Of a DNA stretch of 64,000 nt, positions 4,332-33,192 are shown in pieces. The stretch covers positions 64,001-128,000 of the forward strand of contig CAYSCM010000001.1 of the NCBI GenBank assembly GCA_964429815.1. Reading direction: 5' to 3'. Source of the DNA: an uncultured Candidatus Saccharibacteria bacterium. Lineage in GTDB: Bacteria; Patescibacteriota; Minisyncoccia; Phycocordibacterales; CAYSCM01. A program made the translations under genes and the position numbers. Under the pieces are notes generated by a model, which searched no databases, had not been told where the DNA came from, and saw only the letters and a list, made by a program, of their open reading frames with translations. The first letter of the stretch is position 1; every line of letters begins with the position of its first letter.

Positions 4332-5373
4332 GTTCGATAAGTATAGTCGAAATCGTTTTTACGATGGCTTTGGTGCTGAAGCGCTCTCCCGCCACACGCG
4401 AGAGGTACGCTCCGATCTGGGGGCGGTCGACCGACTCGACGAGCGCACGTATTCGCTCCGCGAGCGCTATGGGGTCGCGTTCGGGAAAGGTGAGACGCGA
4501 GGCGTACTGCCCAAAGTATCCGCTAAACGCGACATTGCTCACGATGGGAGGTGTTCCCGCGGCCATGGATTCGATGACGGCTTTATCGAGGCCGCCGGGC
4601 GGGGTCATATTGACGGAAACGCTCGCCCGACAGTACCACACGGGAAGTCCCTCGTTGGGAATGGAGCCTATAAAACGGACGGTCTTCCCTAGTCCGCGTT
4701 CTTCGACGAGCCTGAGAAGCTTTTTTTCATATGCGCGATCGCTTTCGTGGACCGGAGCTCCAATGAACGTGACGCTGAACCTCTCCTTCCAGTGACGCTT
4801 TAAGATCTCTGCCGCCTCGATGAGCGTATCGCAGTTCTTGATGGGCGTGATACGCCCGACGCTTATGACGGCACGCTCCTCACGCGCAGAGCTCTCGCAG
4901 GCAAAGCGCCCCACCTCGATGCCATGCCCGAGAATGTGAAGTTTCCGCGACGGCAACCGAAAGCTGTAGCGCGATGCGGTTAAGACCGCGTGGCTGAAAA
5001 GATGCGCTACGTAGAGCTTGAGGTTCACCTGCCGATGCGTATACCATAATCCGACCCGCTTTCCCATAAGGCGCCAGGGTATGCCGCCCAAGACGACATA
5101 CTCGGGATTCATGTGAACGAGTACGACGTCGTACGGACGACGGATGGAAAAAATATATTGATAGAAACGCCACAGGTACGTGAGCCTCCCGGCACCTTCC
5201 TCCTTCCCCAGCGAGCGCACATGGACGTTCTCGGGTAGTGTAGCTCCTCCGCGTTCAAGACAGATGACCTCGACGGCCGTAAAGTGCCGTGCGAATTCCT
5301 GCAACCACGATATGACGTACGCTAGAAGATCGTCGTCTTCGTCAATTTTCTGGGTAATAAAGAGGAGTCGCAT
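4318..5373 (-). CDS. glycosyltransferase family 4
   Basis: 351 aa. GT-B C-terminal E-x7-E region (ESMAAGTPPIV). Confidence 0.75.
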   Translation of the reverse strand: MRLLFITQKIDEDDDLLAYVISWLQEFARHFTAVEVICLERGGATLPENVHVRSLGKEEGAGRLTYLWRFYQYIFSIRRPYDVVLVHMNPEYVVLGGIPWRLMGKRVGLWYTHRQVNLKLYVAHLFSHAVLTASRYSFRLPSRKLHILGHGIEVGRFACESSAREERAVISVGRITPIKNCDTLIEAAEILKRHWKERFSVTFIGAPVHESDRAYEKKLLRLVEERGLGKTVRFIGSIPNEGLPVWYCRASVSVNMTPPGGLDKAVIESMAAGTPPIVSNVAFSGYFGQYASRLTFPERDPIALAERIRALVESVDRPQIGAYLSRVAGERFSTKAIVKTISTILIEHVRH

Positions 5374-7620: not shown

Positions 7621-8829
7621 TCAGCGCGAAAGGAGCGGCATAAATACCCTTTCGCGCATACCGGCAGCGACGAGGCTCCAGTCATATTTTTCAAACACGA
7701 GCTTGCGAGCATACTTGACGACTCCCGAGACCTTCTCGGGACCGGCAAGAATATCTTCGACCGCCGCGACGATATCGCTCGGAGAGTCTTTATCGACGGC
7801 CCACCCGGTGGTCGGTTTGTCGGGGTTTCGTTTCGCATCAAACAGGAAGTCCGCAATGCCCCCTTCCTGGGTCCCAATGACGGGAATTCCTGCTGCCATA
7901 GCTTCGATGAATGAATTTCCCATGCCCTCCGAGCGGCTCGGGCGGATGAAAATATCGCACGCTTTGAGATACTTCGGCATCTCGTCATGAGAGAGCTGGC
8001 CGAGGAATTTCACCCGCCTCTCGACCCCAAGCTCCCGCGCAAGGGCCTTTAGTTTTATCTCGTCGGGCCCGACGCCAAAGACGACGAAATGGACACTCTG
8101 TGGAAGGCCGCGCTGTGCGCGTATGACGTCGTCGACAGCGTTTTTGTGGACAAGCCGGGAAGTCGTCACCAGAAAAACATCGCCCTCTTTCTTGCCGAGG
8201 AGCGTCTTCACCGTTTCCATCTCCTCGGGCGGATAGGAGGCCGAGAAACGTTTGGTATCAACGGCGTTCGGGATGATTTCAAGGCGCCCCTTGAAACCTC
8301 GTCGGCGCGCCCAGGAGCCTAAGAACGTGGAGATCGCTTGGATAGTGTCGGCCGTCGTGAAGGCGCGAGAAAAAAGTGGCCATACCGGGCGAGCCAGGCG
8401 TTCGATATGCTCCGGTGGATCACCTTCTTGGAGGGTGAGAATAAACGGGACCTTGGGGTGGAACCACTTGAAAAGCGCCGCGGGGATGCCACATGAGTGC
8501 GCCATCATTGCCCAGATAGCATCGAAGTGATACCTCCGGTGAAGCGAGAGGGCCTTCCAGGCCGCAAGAAACTGAAAGAGATGCTTATTGTAGTGGAGGG
8601 GAAATCGCTTAAGGTCTGCCATCGTGGGGTTCGGACGCGCAGGCCCAATGCGATGGACATACACATTTCCTATTTTTTCTTCCTTGGGAAGGGAGGAGTC
8701 GAATCTCAGGCACACCATGTGAAGTTCAATTTCAGATGTAGCAATGCGATCAGTAATTTCTTTGATAGCCACCTCTGCCCCGCCCACGTGCGGGTAATAG
8801 GTCAGGGAAAAAATGAGTATTCGTTTCAT
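7621..8829 (-). CDS. glycosyltransferase family 1/4
   Basis: ORF 7621..8880. Start placed at the internal MKRILIFSLTYYPHVGGAE (typical GT4 N-terminus), which abuts the stop of the upstream epimerase gene. SRSEGMGNSFIEAMAAGIPVIGT motif. Confidence 0.8.
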   Translation of the reverse strand: MKRILIFSLTYYPHVGGAEVAIKEITDRIATSEIELHMVCLRFDSSLPKEEKIGNVYVHRIGPARPNPTMADLKRFPLHYNKHLFQFLAAWKALSLHRRYHFDAIWAMMAHSCGIPAALFKWFHPKVPFILTLQEGDPPEHIERLARPVWPLFSRAFTTADTIQAISTFLGSWARRRGFKGRLEIIPNAVDTKRFSASYPPEEMETVKTLLGKKEGDVFLVTTSRLVHKNAVDDVIRAQRGLPQSVHFVVFGVGPDEIKLKALARELGVERRVKFLGQLSHDEMPKYLKACDIFIRPSRSEGMGNSFIEAMAAGIPVIGTQEGGIADFLFDAKRNPDKPTTGWAVDKDSPSDIVAAVEDILAGPEKVSGVVKYARKLVFEKYDWSLVAAGMRERVFMPLLSR

Positions 8830-16282: not shown

Positions 16283-16310
16283 TTCCCGATACTACTTTAT
16301 TTTACTGAGG

Positions 16311-16392
16311 TGGGCGAGGGGAGAGTTGAACTCCCAATCCTTGCGGAATACGCTTCTGAGGCGTACGTGTATACCAATTCCACCACTCGCCC
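16311..16392 (-). tRNA. tRNA-Leu (anticodon CAG)
   Basis: Reverse complement GGGCGAGTGGTGGAATTGGTATACACGTACGCCTCAGAAGCGTATTCCGCAAGGATTGGGAGTTCAACTCTCCCCTCGCCCA. It has a 7-bp acceptor stem, an anticodon loop CUCAGAA, a long variable arm and a GTTCAAC T-loop. It is closely similar to E. coli tRNA-Leu. CCA is not encoded. Confidence 0.85.
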
Positions 16393-16544
16393 GTCTGTTC
16401 CATCCTACTCAAATATGAAAACGGGTCTAGCCGACATCAGACCGCGTGGGTCTCATTTAAAGGCGCCATCAATCCGATTTAAGCCTTCGACACACTGTTC
16501 TGTCAGCCGACTGGCGAGGGGCGGAAAAGCTGTACCGTCCTGTG

Positions 16545-16616
16545 TGCGAGTGGAAGGAATCGAACCTTCGACCTCTGTCTTATCAGGACAGCGTTCTACC
16601 ACTGAACTACACTCGC
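16545..16616 (-). tRNA. tRNA-Ile (anticodon GAT)
   Basis: Reverse complement GCGAGTGTAGTTCAGTGGTAGAACGCTGTCCTGATAAGACAGAGGTCGAAGGTTCGATTCCTTCCACTCGCA. Anticodon loop CUGAUAA. CCA is not encoded. Confidence 0.85.
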
Positions 16617-16923
16617 AATGAGGTGGATACTAGCAAGAGAGCGCCTCCCTATCAACAGCTCCCCCTTCATGCGGGGTGCGTTTGGTCGGTACAATGATGG
16701 TGGTTCCAGTAGAAAGGAGAGAACCTTTGTGCGGTTGGTCACGACGTACACTCAAACGGGATCGCGGTCGTAGCCGAGAAATTCGGTCAAAGCCCATCCA
16801 GGAGGAGCTTTCCCTGCTCACCCCGAATGTCTCACGTGTCCTTCCCGAAGCCACAGTCGCTCCACCGGCGAGTCGCTCCGCGCGGCTCCCCTCACAGCAG
16901 CGACTCGCTGAGCTCTATGCCGC

Positions 16924-16975
16924 AAGGAGGTGATCCAGTCGCGTAAGAGCCCTACCAAGGCGCTTACGACTACCG
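16924..16975 (-). rRNA. rrs: 16S rRNA 3'-terminal segment (degenerate helix-45-like hairpin + CUGGAUCACCUCCUU anti-SD), separated from the 16S body by a ~1.6-kb insert
   Basis: Minus-strand sequence GGUAGUCGUAAGCGCCUUGGUAGGGCUCUUACGCGACUGGAUCACCUCCUU. It has the exact anti-Shine-Dalgarno end, which the 16S body at 18529 lacks. Confidence 0.6.
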
Positions 16976-17029
16976 TTTTCGAACGTTCTTTCTTTCAAGC
17001 GCGCCGCGTTAGCGGCGCGCTTTCTATTC

Positions 17030-17057
17030 AAAAAAAGACCCGCTCTCAGAGCGGGTC
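17030..17057 (-). terminator. rho-independent terminator (GACCCGCUCUGAGAGCGGGUC + U7)
   Basis: Perfect 8-bp stem and U7, directly after the 146-aa membrane protein gene. Confidence 0.7.
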
Positions 17058-17069
17058 AGGTACGGGGGG

Positions 17070-17510
17070 TTATGCATCGTCGCGGTGACATAGCCGCAGG
17101 AGCGCACTAACGATGAGGACAGCTCCGAGGACGACCGGGGTGAACGCGGCGTTGAGTTCCCTATGGATGCCTAACCGGAGACCAATGAAGGTGACGACGA
17201 GGCCACCGAAGAACAGGATCGCGCTTTTCTCCACGTACGGGCTCCAGATTCGACAGAGGATGCCGCGCCATCCTCCCGTCATGAGAGCGGAAGCTACCAC
17301 CCCCAAGCTGTAGGAGGGAAAAGAATCCGTTTCCCGAACGAGGGCGTGGACGAAAAGCATGAGCCCGAGGAGAAAGACAAACGTGCCGAGTCCGATGATA
17401 AGCCGAGCCACGATGGACTCGCGAAGAACGCGAGGACGACTCCAATCGTGAAAAAGCTTGGTGGAGCGTTGAGACATGGATGGACCCTCCTTCTTTCGTC
17501 GTGATACCAC
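17070..17510 (-). CDS. hypothetical multi-pass membrane protein (146 aa), inside the 16S insert
   Basis: Strong SD (AAGGAGGG). 3-4 predicted TM helices. Followed by a terminator. Confidence 0.55.
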   Translation of the reverse strand: MVSRRKKEGPSMSQRSTKLFHDWSRPRVLRESIVARLIIGLGTFVFLLGLMLFVHALVRETDSFPSYSLGVVASALMTGGWRGILCRIWSPYVEKSAILFFGGLVVTFIGLRLGIHRELNAAFTPVVLGAVLIVSALLRLCHRDDA

Positions 17511-17561
17511 TCTTCCTGAGCCGCCGCAACCTGTGGAAAACCGTTACGCAAGAAGGCCGCC

Positions 17562-17771
17562 CTACGGGCGGCCTTGCGGCTTTTTCTCGGCGCGACAGAT
17601 AAAGACGCACAGTATCATAAGCGCGATCGCGATGATGATAAAGAGCGTCCCCGCCGGCAGCGCATGAACAGGTTTTCCGCGTTGGATGATGCCGCCGATG
17701 AGCGCGGCAAAGCCGGCACCGGCAAGAACGAGCGCGAAGAAAGCCGTTGTGAGATTCGCTGCCTTTTTCAT
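17562..17771 (-). CDS. small 2-TM membrane protein (69 aa), inside the 16S insert
   Basis: MKKAANLTTAFFALVLAGAGFAALIGG.... Its ATG overlaps the TGA of the upstream 41-aa ORF (ATGA). Confidence 0.45.
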   Translation of the reverse strand: MKKAANLTTAFFALVLAGAGFAALIGGIIQRGKPVHALPAGTLFIIIAIALMILCVFICRAEKKPQGRP

Positions 17772-17893
17772 GGGAGCCTCACGAGCGGTCCGTGGAAGTA
17801 GAGAAACACGTCGAGCGCCAAACTGAAAAAGAACAGGCTTAGCAGGATACGTTTCTTCCCGCTTGGGCCCGAGAACGCCTTGATGGGATGCAT
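17768..17893 (-). CDS. very small 1-TM membrane peptide (41 aa, MHPIKAFSGPSGKKRILLSLFFFSLALDVFLYFHGPLVRLP)
   Basis: Not in the ORF track (<60 aa). GGGAGGG SD 6 nt upstream. Translationally coupled to the next gene. Confidence 0.4.
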   Translation of the reverse strand: MHPIKAFSGPSGKKRILLSLFFFSLALDVFLYFHGPLVRLP

Positions 17894-17996
17894 GCTAGCC
17901 CTCCCTGGTACCTTGGCACATCCTAGCTAAAGAGGCATGCCGGCGCAATCTAAGAAGAGCGCCGCCGGTGGTGCCGGCGGCGTCGTGTCCCCACGA

Positions 17997-18251
17997 TCAA
18001 GGGAAGGTTCGGTCGATGAACGAGCCGAAGTAGCCGACGCCGAAGCCGAGTCCGAGGTACTGGAGCGGTCGGAGCGGTGCCTCGAGCATGTTGACGGCAG
18101 CGTAGGCGCCGAGCATCCAGGCTATACCTACCGTGAGCGCCCCGGCGGCCACGCCGGTCGCAACGTCACGGTACCAAGAGGCCTGAGCGTCCCACATGTG
18201 GTCGAGGCGCTCGAGTCCAGTGCGATAGTTCCGTAGGGTTCCGTCGGGCAT
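17997..18251 (-). CDS. small 2-TM membrane protein (84 aa), inside the 16S insert
   Basis: Strong SD (AAGGAGG) 6 nt upstream of ATG. Hydrophobic segments VATGVAAGALTVGIAWMLGAYAAV and YLGLGFGVGYFGSF. Confidence 0.5.
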   Translation of the reverse strand: MPDGTLRNYRTGLERLDHMWDAQASWYRDVATGVAAGALTVGIAWMLGAYAAVNMLEAPLRPLQYLGLGFGVGYFGSFIDRTFP

Positions 18252-18326
18252 AGGAACCTCCTTTCCTTTCCCGTCCCTGTTCTACCGAAGTTTTGCGCTC
18301 TACACAATGGCTTCCTCCCCATGCGC

Positions 18327-18356
18327 AAAAAAGCCCCTTATAAGGGGCTTTTTTGC
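18327..18356. terminator. palindromic bidirectional intrinsic terminator (AAAAAAGCCCCUUAUAAGGGGCUUUUUU)
   Basis: Perfect 9-bp stem with A/U tracts on both sides. It lies about 170 nt into the insert that follows the 16S body. Confidence 0.65.
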
Positions 18357-18528
18357 GTTGGTACCAGAGTCTCTTTTGTTCCGTTCAATATACCAGTACG
18401 CATTTCTGGAAAGCGAGCAGACTTTAAAGACATACTGCTATGGTCTACTTCCGTACTCGATCGAGATACAGAATATCGACCGGATAAGTCTTACCTTCCG
18501 AAGAAGGAGACAGTTCCGATTGGAATTA

Positions 18529-19980
<1,452 letters not shown>

Positions 19981-27904: not shown

Positions 27905-28666
27905 TCAGAGAGGCCTGACCCGGACCTTCACATCGACCGTAGTCGAGGTCGCTGTAAACGGACGAGGCCACGTGAAGGTGAGCGTGTTACTCCCCTGCGC
28001 AGGGAGCTCTCTCACGACCGTGCGGGACGCCGCCATTGCATTGCCGTTTTCGTTGAAGATAACCGCGGTCGCCTCGATGCTTTGTATCGGCCGAAGTGAG
28101 GTGTTGCTGATGGTCACCGTGAGCTTGGGAGAGGCGCCCGCCTCGGAAAGTCCTCGCTCCCCTATCAAAATACTTTTAGCAGGATCGTCGGCTAGGGTGA
28201 AATTTTGTACGGGCGAAAATTCGAAGAAGGTGCGCGAGGGGGTTCGATTCCCCGTCGTTATGCCCGGTTCAACGATGACGTTAACCTGGCCTGGCGAGAG
28301 GAATGTGGTCCCCTTACGCTCCACGACGAGGATGTTTCCCTCATCGTAGAGCTTGAAATCGTAGGGAAAGGAGAGAACAGCACCGCTCTCATTGGGATTG
28401 TTGACGTAGGCGATCGCCGTCCACACCCCCGGCGTTACCTCGACGGAGCGTGCCCACATGACCGTGGCTGGGGATGTTTTGAAGGGGCAGATTTTCTTGC
28501 AAGCGCCACCGCAGTCAATTCCCTCTTCCCTGCCATCTTGTCTGCCGTCGGAGCAGGTCGGCGCCGTGGAGAGGAGTGAGTACGCGATACCCCCAAAAAG
28601 AAGCAGAAGAACGAGTAGTATGCCGCTTACGTAGAGGCCCTTGCGGCGATTAGCCCAGGCTGACAT
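27905..28666 (-). CDS. hypothetical signal-anchored extracytoplasmic protein
   Basis: ORF 27905..28699. Start moved to MSAWANRRKGLYVSGILLVLLLLFGG because the upstream 33 nt lie inside a terminator hairpin. Its stop abuts the rodA start, suggesting an operon with rodA. Confidence 0.5.
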   Translation of the reverse strand: MSAWANRRKGLYVSGILLVLLLLFGGIAYSLLSTAPTCSDGRQDGREEGIDCGGACKKICPFKTSPATVMWARSVEVTPGVWTAIAYVNNPNESGAVLSFPYDFKLYDEGNILVVERKGTTFLSPGQVNVIVEPGITTGNRTPSRTFFEFSPVQNFTLADDPAKSILIGERGLSEAGASPKLTVTISNTSLRPIQSIEATAVIFNENGNAMAASRTVVRELPAQGSNTLTFTWPRPFTATSTTVDVKVRVRPL

Positions 28667-28682
28667 GGGAAGAATAGTAACA

Positions 28683-28713
28683 CGAAAAAAACACCTCACT
28701 TTGAGGTGTTTTT
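28683..28713. terminator. bidirectional intrinsic terminator (A7-ACACCUCA-CUU-UGAGGUGU-U7) ending the 23S-5S transcription unit
   Basis: Perfect 8-bp stem flanked by A7 and T7. Confidence 0.7.
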
Positions 28714-28730
28714 TTGACTTTTAAATCCCC

Positions 28731-28880
28731 TAACCTGGCGGCTACCTACTCTCCCCTTGCGAGTACCTAGCGGCGTAGCGGGCTGAAAGCGAGGGTTCGC
28801 AGCTTTCAGAGCCGCAGGCCTGTTCGAGGCCGAGGCGGGGTCACGCATAAAATGCAGCAGCATTTTATGCGTGACTAACG
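28731..28880 (-). repeat. divergent 5S rRNA-like copy. Its 3' 37 nt are identical to the canonical 5S. It carries an internal ~35-nt extra hairpin, and its 5' part is replaced by a perfect palindrome (GUCACGCAUAAAAUGC-AGCAGC-AUUUUAUGCGUGAC).
   Basis: 28731-28767 equals 28914-28950 exactly. Upstream of that the copy diverges, though the CCUCGAACAGGCC segment still resembles 5S (UUCCGAACACGGCC). Confidence 0.5.
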
Positions 28881-28913
28881 GCATGTCCCGTCCAAAATGT
28901 TAGTTAGAAACTA

Positions 28914-29024
28914 TAACCTGGCGGCTACCTACTCTCCCCTTGCGAGTACCATCGGCGCTAGCGGGCTTAACGGCCGTGTTCGGAATGAGAACGGGTGTTT
29001 CCCCGCCGCCAAACCACCAGATTA
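28914..29024 (-). rRNA. rrf: 5S ribosomal RNA (canonical copy)
   Basis: Reverse complement UCUGGUGGUUUGGCGGCGGGGAAACACCCGUUCUCAUUCCGAACACGGCCGUUAAGCCCGCUAGCGCCGAUGGUACUCGCAAGGGGAGAGUAGGUAGCCGCCAGGUUA. Very similar to Bacillus-type 5S. Confidence 0.85.
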
Positions 29025-29073
29025 TAAATTCCAACTATTTTCGATCTCTAAGTGTGACATTTTGGACGGATTC

Positions 29074-29119
29074 TCGGAATGAGAACGGGTGTTTCCCCGC
29101 CGCCAAACCACCAGATTAT
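29074..29119 (-). repeat. 46-nt perfect direct repeat of the 5S 5' half (partial 5S copy) in the 23S-5S spacer
   Basis: 29074-29119 is identical to 28980-29025. Confidence 0.6.
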
Positions 29120-30388
29120 GAGATTCAAAAAGTCGGGTTCGGCAGCCGACTTCCTCGATAGGATGAGGAAGATCGGCTGCCGCCCGCGCAAGGACGTGAG
29201 CAGTTGAGCGGGGCGCTCCTCCCGAGCGGCCACCATTCCCATCGCAGTGCTAAAGCGCTTCTTAGAATGGTCGCGGAGGGCGACACCATTCCAGCTCCGC
29301 AAAGGGTCCGTGCACGCTTCTTTCCCACGTCCGAAAAGCGAAAACAAAGAACTTAACGTTTCGAAGCGTCCGAAATCCGGGTAGATTTCGGCCACCAGTA
29401 AAACGTCAAGCGGGTTAAAAAAGTAACGAAAATCATATTCAATCAATTGCGACATGCAGATTCCCTGACAGGAAACTCGACGTATTAGTACGCCTCGGCT
29501 CAATCCGTTGCCGGACTTCCACCTGGCGCCTATCAACGTAATAGTCTCTTACGGGTCTCAACGAGTCCTCATCTCAGAGTTGGCTTCTTGCTTAGATGCT
29601 TTCAGCAATTATCCATGCCGAACTTAGCTACGCAGCGTGCTTCTGGCGAAACAGCTGCCACACCAGAGGTTCGTCCATTCCGGTCCTCTCGTACTAGGAA
29701 CAGATCTCTTCAAGACTCAACGCCCATGGTAGATAGGAGACCAACCTGTCTCACGACGGTTTGAACCCAGCTCGCGTATCTTTTTAATTGGCGAACAGCC
29801 AAACCCTTGGGACCTTCTCCAGCCCCAGGATAAGATGAGCCGACATCGAGGTGCCGAACGGTACCGTCGCTATGGACGCTTGGGTACCACTAGCCTGTTA
29901 TCCCCAGAGTAGCTTTTGTCCGATAATCTTCCCCCGCATCTAATGCGTAAGGTCGGTTCACTTTGCTCCGCTTTCGCGCCTGCTCGGCATGTACGCCTTA
30001 CAGTCAAGCTCCCTTTTGCCAATACACTATCGGCACGGTTTCCATTCGCGCCTAGGGAACCTTAATAGACTCCTCCGTTACTCTTTAGGAGGATAGCGCC
30101 CCACTAAAACTGCCTGCCATGCAGTGTCCCTCATCGTTTTTGCCGACGAGGTTAGAGACTATATGTTGTCAGGATGGTATTTCACTGGCGAGTCCACACT
30201 CCCCGGAAGGAATGCTTCAACCTCTCCCATCTATGCTGCGCAGAAAAAACATAGCCCCACTACAAAGCTACAGTAAAGCTTCTGGGGTCTTTTCGTCTAA
30301 CCACGGGTAACCGGCATCTTCACCGGTATTGTATTTTCACCAGGCTGATCCTCGAGACAGTCCCCCAGTCGTTACACCATTCGTGCAC

Positions 30389-30428
<40 letters not shown>

Positions 30429-31156
30429 GATTATAGTTATCGCCGACATTCACCAGGGCTTGCATAGCCCAGCACTACACATAAATGCATAGCACCATCC
30501 ATGCTTGACCTTCTGGCATTGGTCAGGTGTCACCCCCTATACATCCTCTTACGAGTTCGCAGGGAGCTGTGTTTTTGGTAAACAGTCGCCAGGAGTACTT
30601 TCGCTGCGGCCCCGCCGACTTGCGTCGAAAGGGCAGGCCTTATTGCTAACGTACGGCCGCTTTTTTGCCGAGTTCCTTGAGGATCAATCACCTGTTCGCC
30701 TTGGTCTACTCGACCTGACCACCTGTGTCGGATTACGGTACGGTCTCGTGTTTGTTATGCTTAGAGATTTTTCTTGGAAGCGTGCTCCCATGCGTAAATC
30801 CTCCGTAGAGGATCTCCCCGTGATGCTCGGACTTGCGACTCCCGGATTTTCCTAGAAGTCATCCTCACACCCCAGACACCAATCCAATAAGATGCGCATA
30901 GTACAACCCTTCGTCCTCTCATCGCACAAACACAAGGTCATGGAATATTAACCATGCATCCATTAGGTACGGCTTTCGCCATCCCCTTAGGACCGACTAA
31001 CCCTTGGCTGATCTTCATCGCCAAGGAAACCTTGGTCTTTCGGCGTGGGGGAGTCTCACCCCCATTGTGGTTACTCGTGCCGGCATTCTCACTTCGCAAC
31101 GCTCCACGCTCAGTTACCCTCGCGCTTCATGGCGGATGCGAACGCTCTCCTACCGC

Positions 31157-31340
31157 GTTATGTGTTTCGTTGAGGAGCCGAGGATGGCTCCTCGGCTATT
31201 AGTCTTCTTCGTCGTTATAGATGAACGGTATAGGTCCAAACATTGACCAGACCGCGACCGCAATGACGTAGATTGCAAACCAGTCGTCTTCCAACATGGC
31301 TTCACCTCTTTTGTACTTTCCTCAACGAAACACACAACAC
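31157..31340 (-). other. 23S rRNA intervening sequence (IVS) in helix 45: ~184-nt insertion closed by a 20-bp stem
   Basis: gttatgtgtttcgttgagga (31157-31176) pairs with tcctcaacgaaacacacaac (31319-31338). Located immediately 5' of the conserved GGGUAGGAGAGCGUUC, the classical helix-45 IVS site. Confidence 0.65.
31199..31297 (-). CDS. 32-aa hydrophobic peptide ORF inside the 23S IVS (MLEDDWFAIYVIAVAVWSMFGPIPFIYNDEED)
   Basis: ATG preceded by AAAGAGGUG at a 6-nt spacing. Single predicted TM helix. Not in the ORF track (<60 aa). Confidence 0.3.
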   Translation of the reverse strand: MLEDDWFAIYVIAVAVWSMFGPIPFIYNDEED

Positions 31341-31417
31341 CCTCAGTTTCGGTACAACGCTTAAGCCCCGATTATTTCCGGCGCAAGATCTCTCGATGAG
31401 TGAGCTGTTACGCTTTC

Positions 31418-31449
<32 letters not shown>

Positions 31450-32106
31450 TCATTGTCAGAGAAATTTCACCTCCTTAAGATGCACTGAGCGTTGATTTTG
31501 GGACCTTAACTTGAGATCTAGGCTCTTCCCTTTTTGACCACCGGAGCTTAGCCCCCGGAGTCTAACTGCGTGGTAGTGGAGAACGGTATTTGGAGTTTGA
31601 TAGGATTGACGAGCTTTCGCCCTATTCAATCCTTCCAGTGCTCTACCCCCGTTCTATAAACCACACGCCAGCCCAAAAGCTGTTTCGGAGAGAACCAGCT
31701 ATTACCAGGTTCGATAAGCTTTTCACTCCAACCCACAAGTCATCCGAATGCGTTGAACGACATACCGGTTCGGGCCTCCCCACTCCTTTCGGAGTGGTTC
31801 ACCCTGCTCATGGGTAGCTCACCTGGCTTCGGGTCGTATACGCGCTACTTAGTCGCGCTATTCACACTCGCTTTCGCTACGGCTTCGTCCGACAAAGGAC
31901 TTAGCCTCGCAACGCGCATACACTCGCCGGCTCATTCTTCAATAGGCACGCGGTCACCCGGAAGGATAGAAGCACCCAAGACTAGCCGATGGGTCGTTGC
32001 GGACGCATTGACCCTGTCGAACATGCTTCGATGCTTGTACCCTCCCAGGCTCCCACTCCTTGTAAGCATAGGGGTTCAGGTCTATTTCACTGCCCTCACC
32101 GGGCTT

Positions 32107-32146
<40 letters not shown>

Positions 32147-33192
32147 TTTGAGAATATTTAGCTTTACCGGTCAGTTCCGGCAGGTTCACCCAAGCTAACC
32201 GTGTCTTGGGCTACTCAAGAACAGAAACAAAGAAGAGTCATCATTTTCGTGTACGGGACTGTTACCCCCTGGGGTTTCGCGTTCCAGCGAATTCCACTAA
32301 CAATGACTTTTGTAACTTCTCTTGCATAAATGCAACGTCTCTGCCTTACAACCCCCACTCTCTTGCGAGAATAGGTTTGAGCTCATCCCTCTTCGCTCGC
32401 CGCTACTAAGGGAATTCCAAGAATTTCTCATACGTGGGACGCAGAGACGTCACACATATGAAAAATTCGTTATTGGTTTTTCTTCCTCCAGGTACTGAGA
32501 TGTTTCACTTCCCTGGGTGCGCATCACACACATACGTGTGGATTCTCATCGTAGATGAGAGAGTTTCCTCATTCGGAGATCTCCGGATCAAAGGTTGCTT
32601 AGCACCTCCCCGAAGCTTATCGCAGCTAGGCTACGTCCTTCATCGCTTCTCAAAGCCAAGGCATCCGCCCTATGCTCTTAGGTTTCCTGTCCGGAAACCT
32701 GCAAACCACAATTGTTTGATTGATTTTGATTACTTTACATTACCCACCTCGATTCTCCTTCGAAGAAACGAGGTTCGAATCACGTGATTTGGGTCACGCG
32801 ATTCTCCCACCTCAAACACCCAAAGACCCCAATTTTCGCACATGGGATACGATGTTTTGATGGAATGCAGTTTTCAAAGACTCACACGTGCTCTTGAATT
32901 ATGGAACTTCGCTCCATGCTTCCTTCGCTCGTCCGGAAATGAGAATGCGATTCTCGTTTCTCTCACTTCGCTAGGAAGTAAAAAATCCGCTCTGAAGCGG
33001 ACCGTTGGCTAACCGTATACACGGAATTACCCCCGCCGCTTGCTTTTAAAGCTGATCGAATAATTCATACACGTGGGGAGAGTATATGCCGGAGAGCCCT
33101 ACCTTGTCAAACCGAGGCTGTACTGAGAAAACACCAAGGAAAAGGGCCGCCTTGGGGGCGACCCTGCGCGCGAGCAAGATTCAGCGAGATCC

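Follow-up and report, generated by a model that had tools for sequence, protein, structure and literature searches.

The window, the whole stretch of 64,000 nt of DNA that was analysed, contains a cluster of 5S rRNA sequences on its minus strand. In minus-strand order, a 23S rRNA gene (32691-29465) is followed by a 342-nt spacer, the 5S cluster, a hairpin (28715-28685) and a protein gene (28666-27905). The 16S gene is unlinked and lies about 8.7 kb further along. The features of the locus are as follows:

29465..32691 (-): 23S rRNA gene, directly upstream of the 5S cluster and co-oriented with it (Rfam LSU_rRNA_bacteria, 2468 bits)
29120..29134 (-): 5' strand of the outer flanking stem, GACTTTTTGAATCTC, partner of 28716-28730; homologous to the upstream flank of the 5S gene of the relative L002 (L002 alignment and MFE fold)
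29074..29119 (-): 5' segment of the outer 5S gene (copy a), containing the 5' strands of helices I-III, and loop C as far as CCGA (nhmmer positions 2-42, E=1e-9)
28887..29073 (-): insert 1, the inner 5S unit of 187 nt (spacer, complete 5S, spacer), which forms a stalk of its own (flank duplex -31.1 kcal/mol, z=-5.4)
29057..29069 (-): 5' arm of the basal stem (13 bp) that closes the inner unit, CCGTCCAAAATGT (inverted repeat I3, 100% complementary)
28916..29021 (-): inner compact 5S rRNA gene (copy b), presumed functional (Rfam RF00001, 81.3 bits, full model 1-120)
28888..28900 (-): 3' arm of this 13-bp inner-unit basal stem, ACATTTTGGACGG (inverted repeat I3)
28876..28886 (-): middle fragment of the outer 5S gene, ACATGCCGTTA, 11 nt, corresponding to ACACGGCCGTTA(AG) of the inner gene by local alignment; the outer gene resumes here at the base that follows CCGA
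28783..28875 (-): insert 2, element E1, 93 nt with three hairpins (covariance model R1, alignment and covariation)
28840-28875 (-): E1 hairpin P1, the 16-bp palindrome with a TGCT loop
28817-28831 (-): E1 hairpin P2, GGCC/GGCC
28783-28809 (-): E1 hairpin P3, CTGAAAGC/GCTTTCAG
28731..28782 (-): 3' segment of the outer 5S gene (core of copy c), with the 3' strand of helix II, helices V/IV and the 3' strand of helix I (nhmmer positions 71-105)
28716..28730 (-): 3' strand of the outer flanking stem, GGGGATTTAAAAGTC; its homologue in L002 is the sequence just downstream of the 5S gene (L002 alignment and MFE fold)
28685..28715 (-): terminator-like hairpin with an A-run, a 14-bp stem and a U-run, ending the 23S-5S transcription unit (inverted repeat I2; weak Rfam terminator-hairpin matches)
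27905..28666 (-): downstream gene of 253 aa with a membrane anchor and a Cys-rich motif, used as the synteny marker for finding related 5S loci

The terminator-like hairpin at 28715-28685 was missed by a simple terminator scan because its U-run falls within the stem. A promoter-like match at the start of the inner 5S gene was treated as chance.

A preliminary description of this DNA had listed copy a as a perfect 46-nt copy of the 5' half of 5S, and the repeat finder agreed: 29074-29119 is identical to 28980-29025, the 5' part of the full gene, at 46 of 46 nt. At the other end of the cluster, 28731-28767 is identical to the 3' end of the inner gene (37 of 37 nt), and weaker similarity continues to 28799. 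The perfect 16-bp palindrome was present as described, with arms at 28840-28855 and 28860-28875, and so was the inverted repeat around copy b (28888-28900 and 29057-29069), although its length is 13 nt and not 12. The predicted fold of the 511-nt cluster region is far more stable than those of shuffled sequences (z=-12.2). In the MFE fold, piece a pairs with piece c, and the full gene b is nested inside, closed by the 13-bp stem.

When the region was searched with Rfam at E<=10, the sole 5S match was at 28916-29021 (-), with 81.3 bits compared to a gathering score of 38, which supports the description of b as a full canonical 5S gene. Its length of 106 nt and the lack of the helix IV tip fit the description of 5S in Parcubacteria (Tsurumaki et al. 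2022, PMC9297842). Neither piece a nor piece c, nor the outer gene as it stands in the DNA, gave a 5S match at E<=10 within 28600-29500. A 5S-model score for the central copy alone had been put forward as a sign that the other pieces are unrelated to 5S. The central copy was indeed the only one to score, but this does not refute a nested arrangement because the halves of a split gene cannot score alone. Searches of a, c and E1 in the window region at E<=10 assigned them to no Rfam family and returned only chance-level matches, for example to mir-290 and a snoRNA. At E<=10, no intron or ribozyme family of Rfam matched the inserts of the window region, which also contain no ORF, and an exact look-up of a spurious 62-aa ORF over E1 and c found nothing on record. 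In related loci, group I introns and LAGLIDADG genes were observed in the 23S gene just upstream of the 5S gene; since these introns were detected, the intron search method works.

Relatives of the locus were located through homologues of the 253-aa downstream gene. The nearest relative found, L002, is represented by contigs of 161-402 kb from three assemblies (L002-L004), and its neighbour-protein homologue is 53% identical. Its locus consists of a 23S gene, a tRNA, one 5S gene, a terminator and the homologue of the downstream gene. The 5S gene of L002 has two nucleotide differences from the full gene of the window. The sequence bordering it upstream, TTTTGAATCTCATAATCTGG, is the one found next to piece a, and the sequence bordering it downstream, TTTAGGGGATTTAAAA..., is the one found next to piece c, while the flanks of copy b match neither. 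Since the L002 flanks match those of a and c, the stretch from a to c takes the place of the ancestral 5S gene, with b in its interior.

The same arrangement was observed in the order of the outer pieces. The outer gene halts at ...CATTCCGA (29074), between CCGA and ACA in helix III/loop C (CCGA^ACA), and resumes right after the 3' arm of the basal stem as ACATGCCGTTA (28886-28876); the inner-gene counterpart of this stretch, which is reduced in the outer copy, is ACACGGCCGTTAAG. Insert 2 is located 11 nt past insert 1. Past this 93-nt block, the outer gene goes on as CCCGCTACGCCGCTAGG (CCCGCTAGCGCCGATGG in the inner gene) and ends with the 37 identical bases. Since the pieces follow each other in order around both blocks, the outer gene is complete in order and carries two inserts. 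Its core amounts to 46 + 11 + 52 nt, both inserts are self-paired, and the 3' strand of helix II carries 3-4 changes. Spliced in silico, the outer gene has an MFE of -39.0 kcal/mol compared to -41.3 kcal/mol for the inner gene, and the MFE structure reproduces the 5S fold for neither. The ancestral 5S gene extends from 29119 to 28731 (-) and is interrupted by two inserts. We propose, with a probability of roughly 0.58, that one 5S gene is nested within another at the end of the 23S-5S transcription unit, the inner gene being the working copy and the outer one a relic.

The pieces had been described as lying in tandem, an arrangement that the L002 flanks contradict, and insertion of a 5S unit into another 5S had been raised as one explanation. 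The latter is supported by the L002 flanks, by the outer gene resuming where it had stopped, and by homologous nested loci elsewhere. The shared flanks or spacers of a tandem repeat were not found at this locus, where the two spacers and the outer flanks are all different in sequence. Two separate partial tandem duplications or slippages, one leaving a 5' fragment upstream of the 5S gene and the other a 3' fragment downstream, could have produced the layout with no insertion if the flanks diverged later. In favor of this, the bases beside the 5S ends of b show a weak resemblance to the outer flanks (TTGGAATTTATAA vs TTGAATCTCATAA), and L033 and L025 show downstream partial copies only. However, the end of a and the start of the next outer fragment are adjacent 5S positions, so two independent events would have to end at adjacent bases, and the same continuity was observed in L017 and L022. 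Duplication also leaves E1 and the basal stem unexplained, and we consider it very unlikely. A single insertion of a stalk-bounded 5S unit would explain the continuity of the outer gene better than two partial duplications. A less parsimonious alternative parse assumes a second outer copy with an internal deletion, in which E1 occupies its usual place.

To compare the locus with related bacteria, metagenomes were scanned with a 24-nt 5S pattern, which gave 54 loci, about 20 of them distinct with a short Parcubacteria-type 5S. Most of the comparison loci were found by a pattern demanding a compact 5S and are therefore a biased sample. By profile search and direct reading, extra 5S-derived pieces were found beside one complete compact 5S in L017, L020, L022, L025, L028, L032, L033, L048, L053, L056 and L066. 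They were also present in L085, which was reached through a protein homologue and thus independently of its 5S sequence. The inner unit lies at CCGA^ACACGG in L017, L022 and L020, and the outer gene resumes with ACACGG in L017, L022 and L085, of which L085 has retained the matching right-hand junction alone. The junctions are as follows:

Window: left CATTCCGA then GAATCCGTCC...; right ...GGACGGG then ACATG
L017: left CATTCCGA then CTGCGCCCCGCACC...; right ...GGTGCTGGGG then ACACGG
L022: left CATTCCGA then CTTGCCCCG...; right ...CCTTCGGGG then ACACGG
L020: left as in L022; right decayed
L048 and L032: unit about 11 nt further on; common stem AAGTGAAATT
L066 and L028: inner unit before helix II of the outer copy, near loop A

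In all nested loci, a long stalk is formed by pairing between the two flanks of the inner gene; its sequence differs each time, with z from -4 to -8 (window -5.4 at -31 kcal/mol, L017 -4.7, L022 -7.4, L048 -7.8). The nested loci share the operon context of the window, with 23S followed by 5S and, on contigs long enough to include it, 16S several kb downstream. Lineages labelled Vogel-, Zambryski- and Wildermuthbacteria-like (Candidatus) are included. A scan of genome contigs with the 5S pattern returned mostly other phyla and only two Parcubacteria loci, both of them simple. The comparison with related genomes that had been recommended thus revealed the same kind of layout in other Parcubacteria contigs, and the nested locus with its added conserved element is in all likelihood real and recurrent in this clade.

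The recurrence also bears on the quality of the assembly. Misresolved repeats, or two strains or species joined through shared 5S stretches, could in principle create such a locus, since the 46- and 37-nt repeats exceed common k-mer sizes. In addition, a short-read Logan contig of the same strain, L001, skips spacer 2, E1 and the middle of c. The last 1027 nt of L001 are 100% identical to the window from 28730 downward, and its first 96 nt are the body of b joined straight to the downstream flank of c. However, L001 starts exactly 30 nt (k-1, with k=31) before the point where a and b diverge, and its read set therefore holds a branch at a as well. Spacer 1 and the block of spacer 2 and E1 are each bordered by 5S on both sides, which means that some genome carries them within 5S. 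Homologous nested layouts also came from several independent assemblies, and those of L017/L034, L027/L028 and L036/L066 were each found in two different metagenome assemblies. A collapsed repeat, suggested in the preliminary description, is thus a very improbable source of the architecture, the least probable of the explanations considered here. L001 itself leaves room for a read-level problem at the 37-nt repeat or for a collapsed allele; it may stem from such an allele present in the population or from a low-coverage shortcut in the de Bruijn graph.

Copy c had been described as a 5S-like copy with its 5' region replaced by the palindrome and with an extra internal hairpin. Its 37 identical nt at the 3' end were confirmed, but the 5' part turned out to be 11 nt of the outer 5S gene (28876-28886) and the separate element E1 (28783-28875), with no replaced 5S end. 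The palindrome and the extra hairpin are hairpins 1 and 3 of E1 and not modified parts of 5S. When the outer copy of L056, the most complete one, from a related contig, was used as a query, about 90 nt were found in common among L056, L066/L036, L028/L027, L032, L017/L034, L048 and L041. The window aligns with them at 28875-28783, with the GTCACG.ATAA start, the hairpin with the TGCT loop, GACCCCGCCTCG, a small hairpin and a third hairpin. We had also considered the hairpin of c as a variant of helix III/loop C because of a shared CGAAC, and dropped this assignment since it aligns with hairpin 3 of E1 in L048, L056 and others.

RNAalifold predicted three hairpins with compensatory changes at 11 of 26 pairs. 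In the palindrome, which is hairpin 1, four pairs are changed on both sides compared to the other loci, and an extra base pairs with a nucleotide that is bulged elsewhere. Across the seven sequences, 97.2% of cells pair, and there are 11 double-change pairs, compared to 3.8+-1.4 in shuffled alignments and at most one with slid partners. For a set of seven sequences, this covariation is good but not overwhelming support for the predicted structure. A covariance model, R1, was trained on six other loci together with the window. It matched the window at 28785-28875 with 73.6 bits (E=1e-15), the sole strong match in 64 kb, although the presence of the window in the training set makes this score partly circular. 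L041, which was outside the training set, scored 51 bits. R1 matched at these 5S loci only, with no match elsewhere in the 64-kb window or at simple-5S loci. Two matches to the E1 pattern in viral contigs, both AT-rich and without rRNA, were rejected as chance.

The position of E1 in the 5S gene varies. It lies between GGTCA and CACCC in L056, L066, L028, L032 and L017, after CACCCG in L048 and after GTTA in the window, while no recognisable 5S surrounds it in L041. At E<=10, the L056 outer copy with E1 matched no intron, ribozyme or other Rfam family, and gave chance-level matches only. E1 is probably a cis-acting structured RNA, and it constitutes a new conserved RNA motif with covariation support.

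The compact or inner 5S scored 73-82 bits against Rfam in all loci, compared to 13.8 bits for the most complete outer copy (L056). The outer copy is nearly complete in L032, L056, L066, L028 and the window. It lacks the 3' domain in L017 and L048, is eroded in L053 and is absent from L068, L002, L013, L012, L073, L074, L076 and L081; in L053, L041 and L068, most or all of it has been lost. Among the loci sampled through protein homologues, independently of 5S, each 5S-bearing locus has a compact 5S that scores in Rfam, and outer remains were found in L056 and L085 only. No locus with an expanded 5S as its sole 5S was found among the approximately 10 lineages reached through homologues of the downstream protein. 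Since a compact 5S is present at every sampled locus, the inner gene most likely makes the working 5S, which would be cut out at the stalk, and the outer gene appears dispensable. As judged from the sequences, the outer gene is probably a relic whose arms are kept identical to the inner copy by gene conversion.

The conservation of the outer copy nevertheless deserves attention. Between L028, L056, L066 and L032, identity is 90-93% for E1 and 78-88% for the outer core, compared to 76-83% for the inner 5S and 77-81% for the 3' ends of 23S. L033 and L025 share an identical 55-nt stretch in the outer 3' core, including positions that differ from the inner copy, whereas the spacers differ. Such conservation of E1 and the outer core is unlike a purely neutral relic and could be due to selection for a cis-acting role, horizontal spread, or both. 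The outer expanded 5S might thus still work, either as a second 5S with expansion segments, perhaps in two pieces, or as a scaffold or regulator through E1 and the protein-binding 3' domain. The covariation and the high conservation of E1 and the outer cores, with the identical core of L033 and L025, would agree with this. The inserts also lie in loop B, helix III and loop C, where other prokaryotic 5S expansion segments cluster (PMC7812874), and the 5S of Halococcus is functional with a 108-nt insert (PMC7530397). However, insert 1 splits the conserved CCGAAC in the presumed helix III, whole domains are missing from the outer copies of L017 and L048, and those of L053, L041 and L068 are mostly or entirely gone. 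Given also the 13.8 bits of L056 and the lack of any sampled locus in which the expanded 5S is the sole one, we regard a working outer gene as distinctly unlikely, and favor the reading of the outer gene as a relic.

If the inner gene is the working copy, the locus might operate as follows. The whole block would be transcribed from the 23S promoter to the hairpin at 28715-28685, and the inner 5S would be freed by double-strand-specific cleavage of the stalk and used in ribosomes. The outer gene would yield no normal 5S, but its arms, composed of the outer helix I and the flanking stem, could still pair and enclose the block. This predicts an unusual processing pathway that would free one 5S from the interior of another 5S fold. 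Gene conversion from the inner copy would hold the arms identical (46/46 and 37/37), while the stretches beside the inserts would be free to drift, as converting them would delete the inserts. The 11-nt and 17-nt stretches beside the inserts of the window differ from the inner gene by 15-25%; only the arms would be homogenised because a conversion tract across a junction would delete the insert. In L032, L033, L028 and L022, helix IV/V of the outer copy has the lineage-specific pair and loop variants of the inner gene. Gene conversion is the best explanation of these shared variants. Recombination between the direct repeats would collapse the locus to a simple 5S with the old flanks, and L002 resembles the product expected from such a collapse. 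The locus may thus serve as a natural system for gene conversion and turnover in a single-copy essential RNA gene.

The several insertion points suggest more than one event, of which at least the one behind the shared junctions of L017, L022 and L020 seems to be old and inherited. The unit may have entered during break repair with out-of-register copying, as a pre-5S inserted through RNA, or by recombination with foreign DNA through the 5S arms. The inner unit could be a present or past invasive replacement cassette, in which a 5S with its stalk enters the helix III region of the resident gene by break repair, through RNA or as foreign DNA, and converts the arms; a direct-repeat collapse then swaps the body and keeps the flanks. 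Although the 5S target is small, at least three insertion points lie within or beside it (at CCGA^ACACGG, past ACACGGCAGTT, and in loop A), and the inserted unit begins and ends at the base of a processing-type stem. The flanks of L002 are of the outer type, like those of L074, and its 5S body is 98% identical to both the inner and the outer copies of the window, and L001 resembles a collapsed right-hand junction. These points are offset by the lack of target-site duplications, an associated enzyme gene or dispersed copies at the nested loci, and by the common junctions of L017, L022 and L020, which fit a single old event inherited vertically. The differing sites are explicable by small junction deletions, and the inner and outer copies of the window are of the same sequence type, in which a foreign origin is not visible. 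We consider an invasive cassette unlikely. As a broader and tentative speculation, doubtful in its full form, Parcubacteria may have a 5S replacement cycle: a cassette gene with its stalk inserts in the helix III region and converts the arms, the locus collapses, and the body is replaced. The window would then be in mid-cycle, and E1 would be a new structured RNA in 5S genes, independently selected or mobile.

The nested 5S locus shares features with several known systems. The intervening sequences of bacterial 23S rRNA are short hairpins without genes that RNase III removes with no religation, leaving a fragmented rRNA that is functional. Like them, the inner unit is a stem-closed rRNA insert that could be cut at its base, leaving the host rRNA in pieces; unlike them, insert 1 of the window holds a 5S gene. 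Integrative elements of tRNA genes carry a replacement for the end of the gene. By analogy, an essential RNA gene is hit here, a working copy is supplied and partial duplicates are present as direct repeats. Unlike these elements, the 5S locus has no integrase, cargo or att-type duplication, and the whole gene is inserted.

Large inserts in 5S genes have been reported previously. The 5S rRNA of Halococcus morrhuae carries an insertion of 108 nt (PMC7530397), which resembles the window in being a large structured insert in a 5S gene. In Halococcus, however, the insert stays in the mature, functional and only 5S with the core intact, whereas a separate compact 5S is present here and several lineages have an incomplete or damaged outer core. 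Helical expansion segments at loop B, helix III and loop C occur in the 5S of a few orders and may coexist with normal genes (Stepanov & Fox 2021, PMC7812874). The same inserts are also found in truncated 5S remnants, for which homologous recombination with the genes was proposed (PMC7812874). As in those cases, helical modules are present in a 5S of the window, and the expanded copy lies beside a normal 5S. Those cases are from Clostridia-related orders, Alteromonadales and Halobacteria, unlike the window, which is from CPR. Sequences with internal duplication were discarded in that survey and the inserts interrupted no conserved motif, in contrast to insert 1 of the window, which splits the conserved CCGA^AC stretch. 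None of the inserts in PMC7812874 is itself a complete 5S gene, as insert 1 is.

In CPR, insertions of at least 100 bp were found in 48% of 16S, 82% of 23S and 0 of 645 5S genes (Tsurumaki et al. 2024, PMC11270868). The window resembles the systems of PMC11270868 and PMC9297842 in the group of organisms and in having rRNA genes with many insertions at several sites. Unlike the CPR insertions in 16S and 23S (PMC11270868), the inserts of the window match no intron family and have no ORF. While CPR 5S genes had been reported without insertions of at least 100 bp (PMC11270868), a whole 5S is found here inside another. Infernal extraction as in PMC11270868 would return the inner compact gene only. 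Standard annotation likewise lists the inner gene alone, and the nested layout is therefore probably hidden. It appears to be undescribed: no report of a 5S nested in a 5S was found for these bacteria, within a literature search whose incomplete coverage makes this an absence of evidence only. The 37-46 nt repeats derived from 5S can also break or short-circuit short-read assemblies of these genomes.

The rRNA genes of the window are split over 16309-19980 and 28731-32691, and their order is 23S-5S, about 8.7 kb of protein genes, 16S, tRNA-Ile(GAT) and tRNA-Leu(CAG). An identical order was found in three of the comparison contigs, L017, L022 and L056. Three features accompany the 5S region of the window:

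29465-32691, 23S rRNA gene, 3227 nt versus a 2925-position model
29140-29182, long, almost perfect hairpin in the 23S-5S spacer
27905-28666, gene for a 253-aa protein

Since the 23S gene spans 3227 nt and the model only 2925 positions, its insertions total about 300 nt. In related loci, group I introns and LAGLIDADG genes are present in the 23S. The nearest relative, L002, which has a single 5S, carries a tRNA gene upstream of the position of the spacer hairpin, and at this site a short hairpin was observed in the window instead. Just upstream of the inner, complete 5S, a promoter-like match was found on the minus strand at 29021-29050 (TAGAGA, 18 nt, TATAAT; 10/12), and its -10 box extends to base 1 of the inner 5S. 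This match is probably due to chance.

The Logan contig L001 (SRR12313479) and the window derive from one strain, sharing 1027 identical nt, and in the contig the downstream flank is attached directly to the canonical 5S body. Its start lies exactly 30 nt ahead of the position at which the outer 5S 5' segment (29074-29119, minus strand) and the inner 5S diverge. The two readings of the contig are a collapsed allele and a graph shortcut.

A small hairpin module, CCCCGTAG...CTACGGGG, was observed in L017 (~4550-4585), L022 (~880-915), L028, L020, L045 and L077. It lies inside or adjoining the pieces of the outer 5S, and its recurrence at varying positions suggests that small inserts of a second family exist alongside E1, the conserved three-hairpin element within the outer 5S. 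Upstream of the 5S of L077, the fragment ATTCGACACGGAAGC is followed by ATGCCCCGTAGG, and the two look like a collapsed outer loop C and basal stem, the latter being the kind of stem that closes an inner 5S unit. A stretch of 877 nt (1625-2500) separates the 5S from a VWA gene in the same contig and possibly contains a small ORF. In L056, an ORF for a SAM-dependent methyltransferase (~7930-8800, minus strand; Methyltransf_25, E=3e-9) is flanked by a compact 5S and an expanded 5S.

The gene for the 253-aa protein follows the 5S in almost all related loci. Pfam gave no match for the protein, which has a membrane segment at the N terminus, followed by C..DG.Q.G.E.G.DCGG.C. In the L056 clade, its homologue is fused to a VWA domain.
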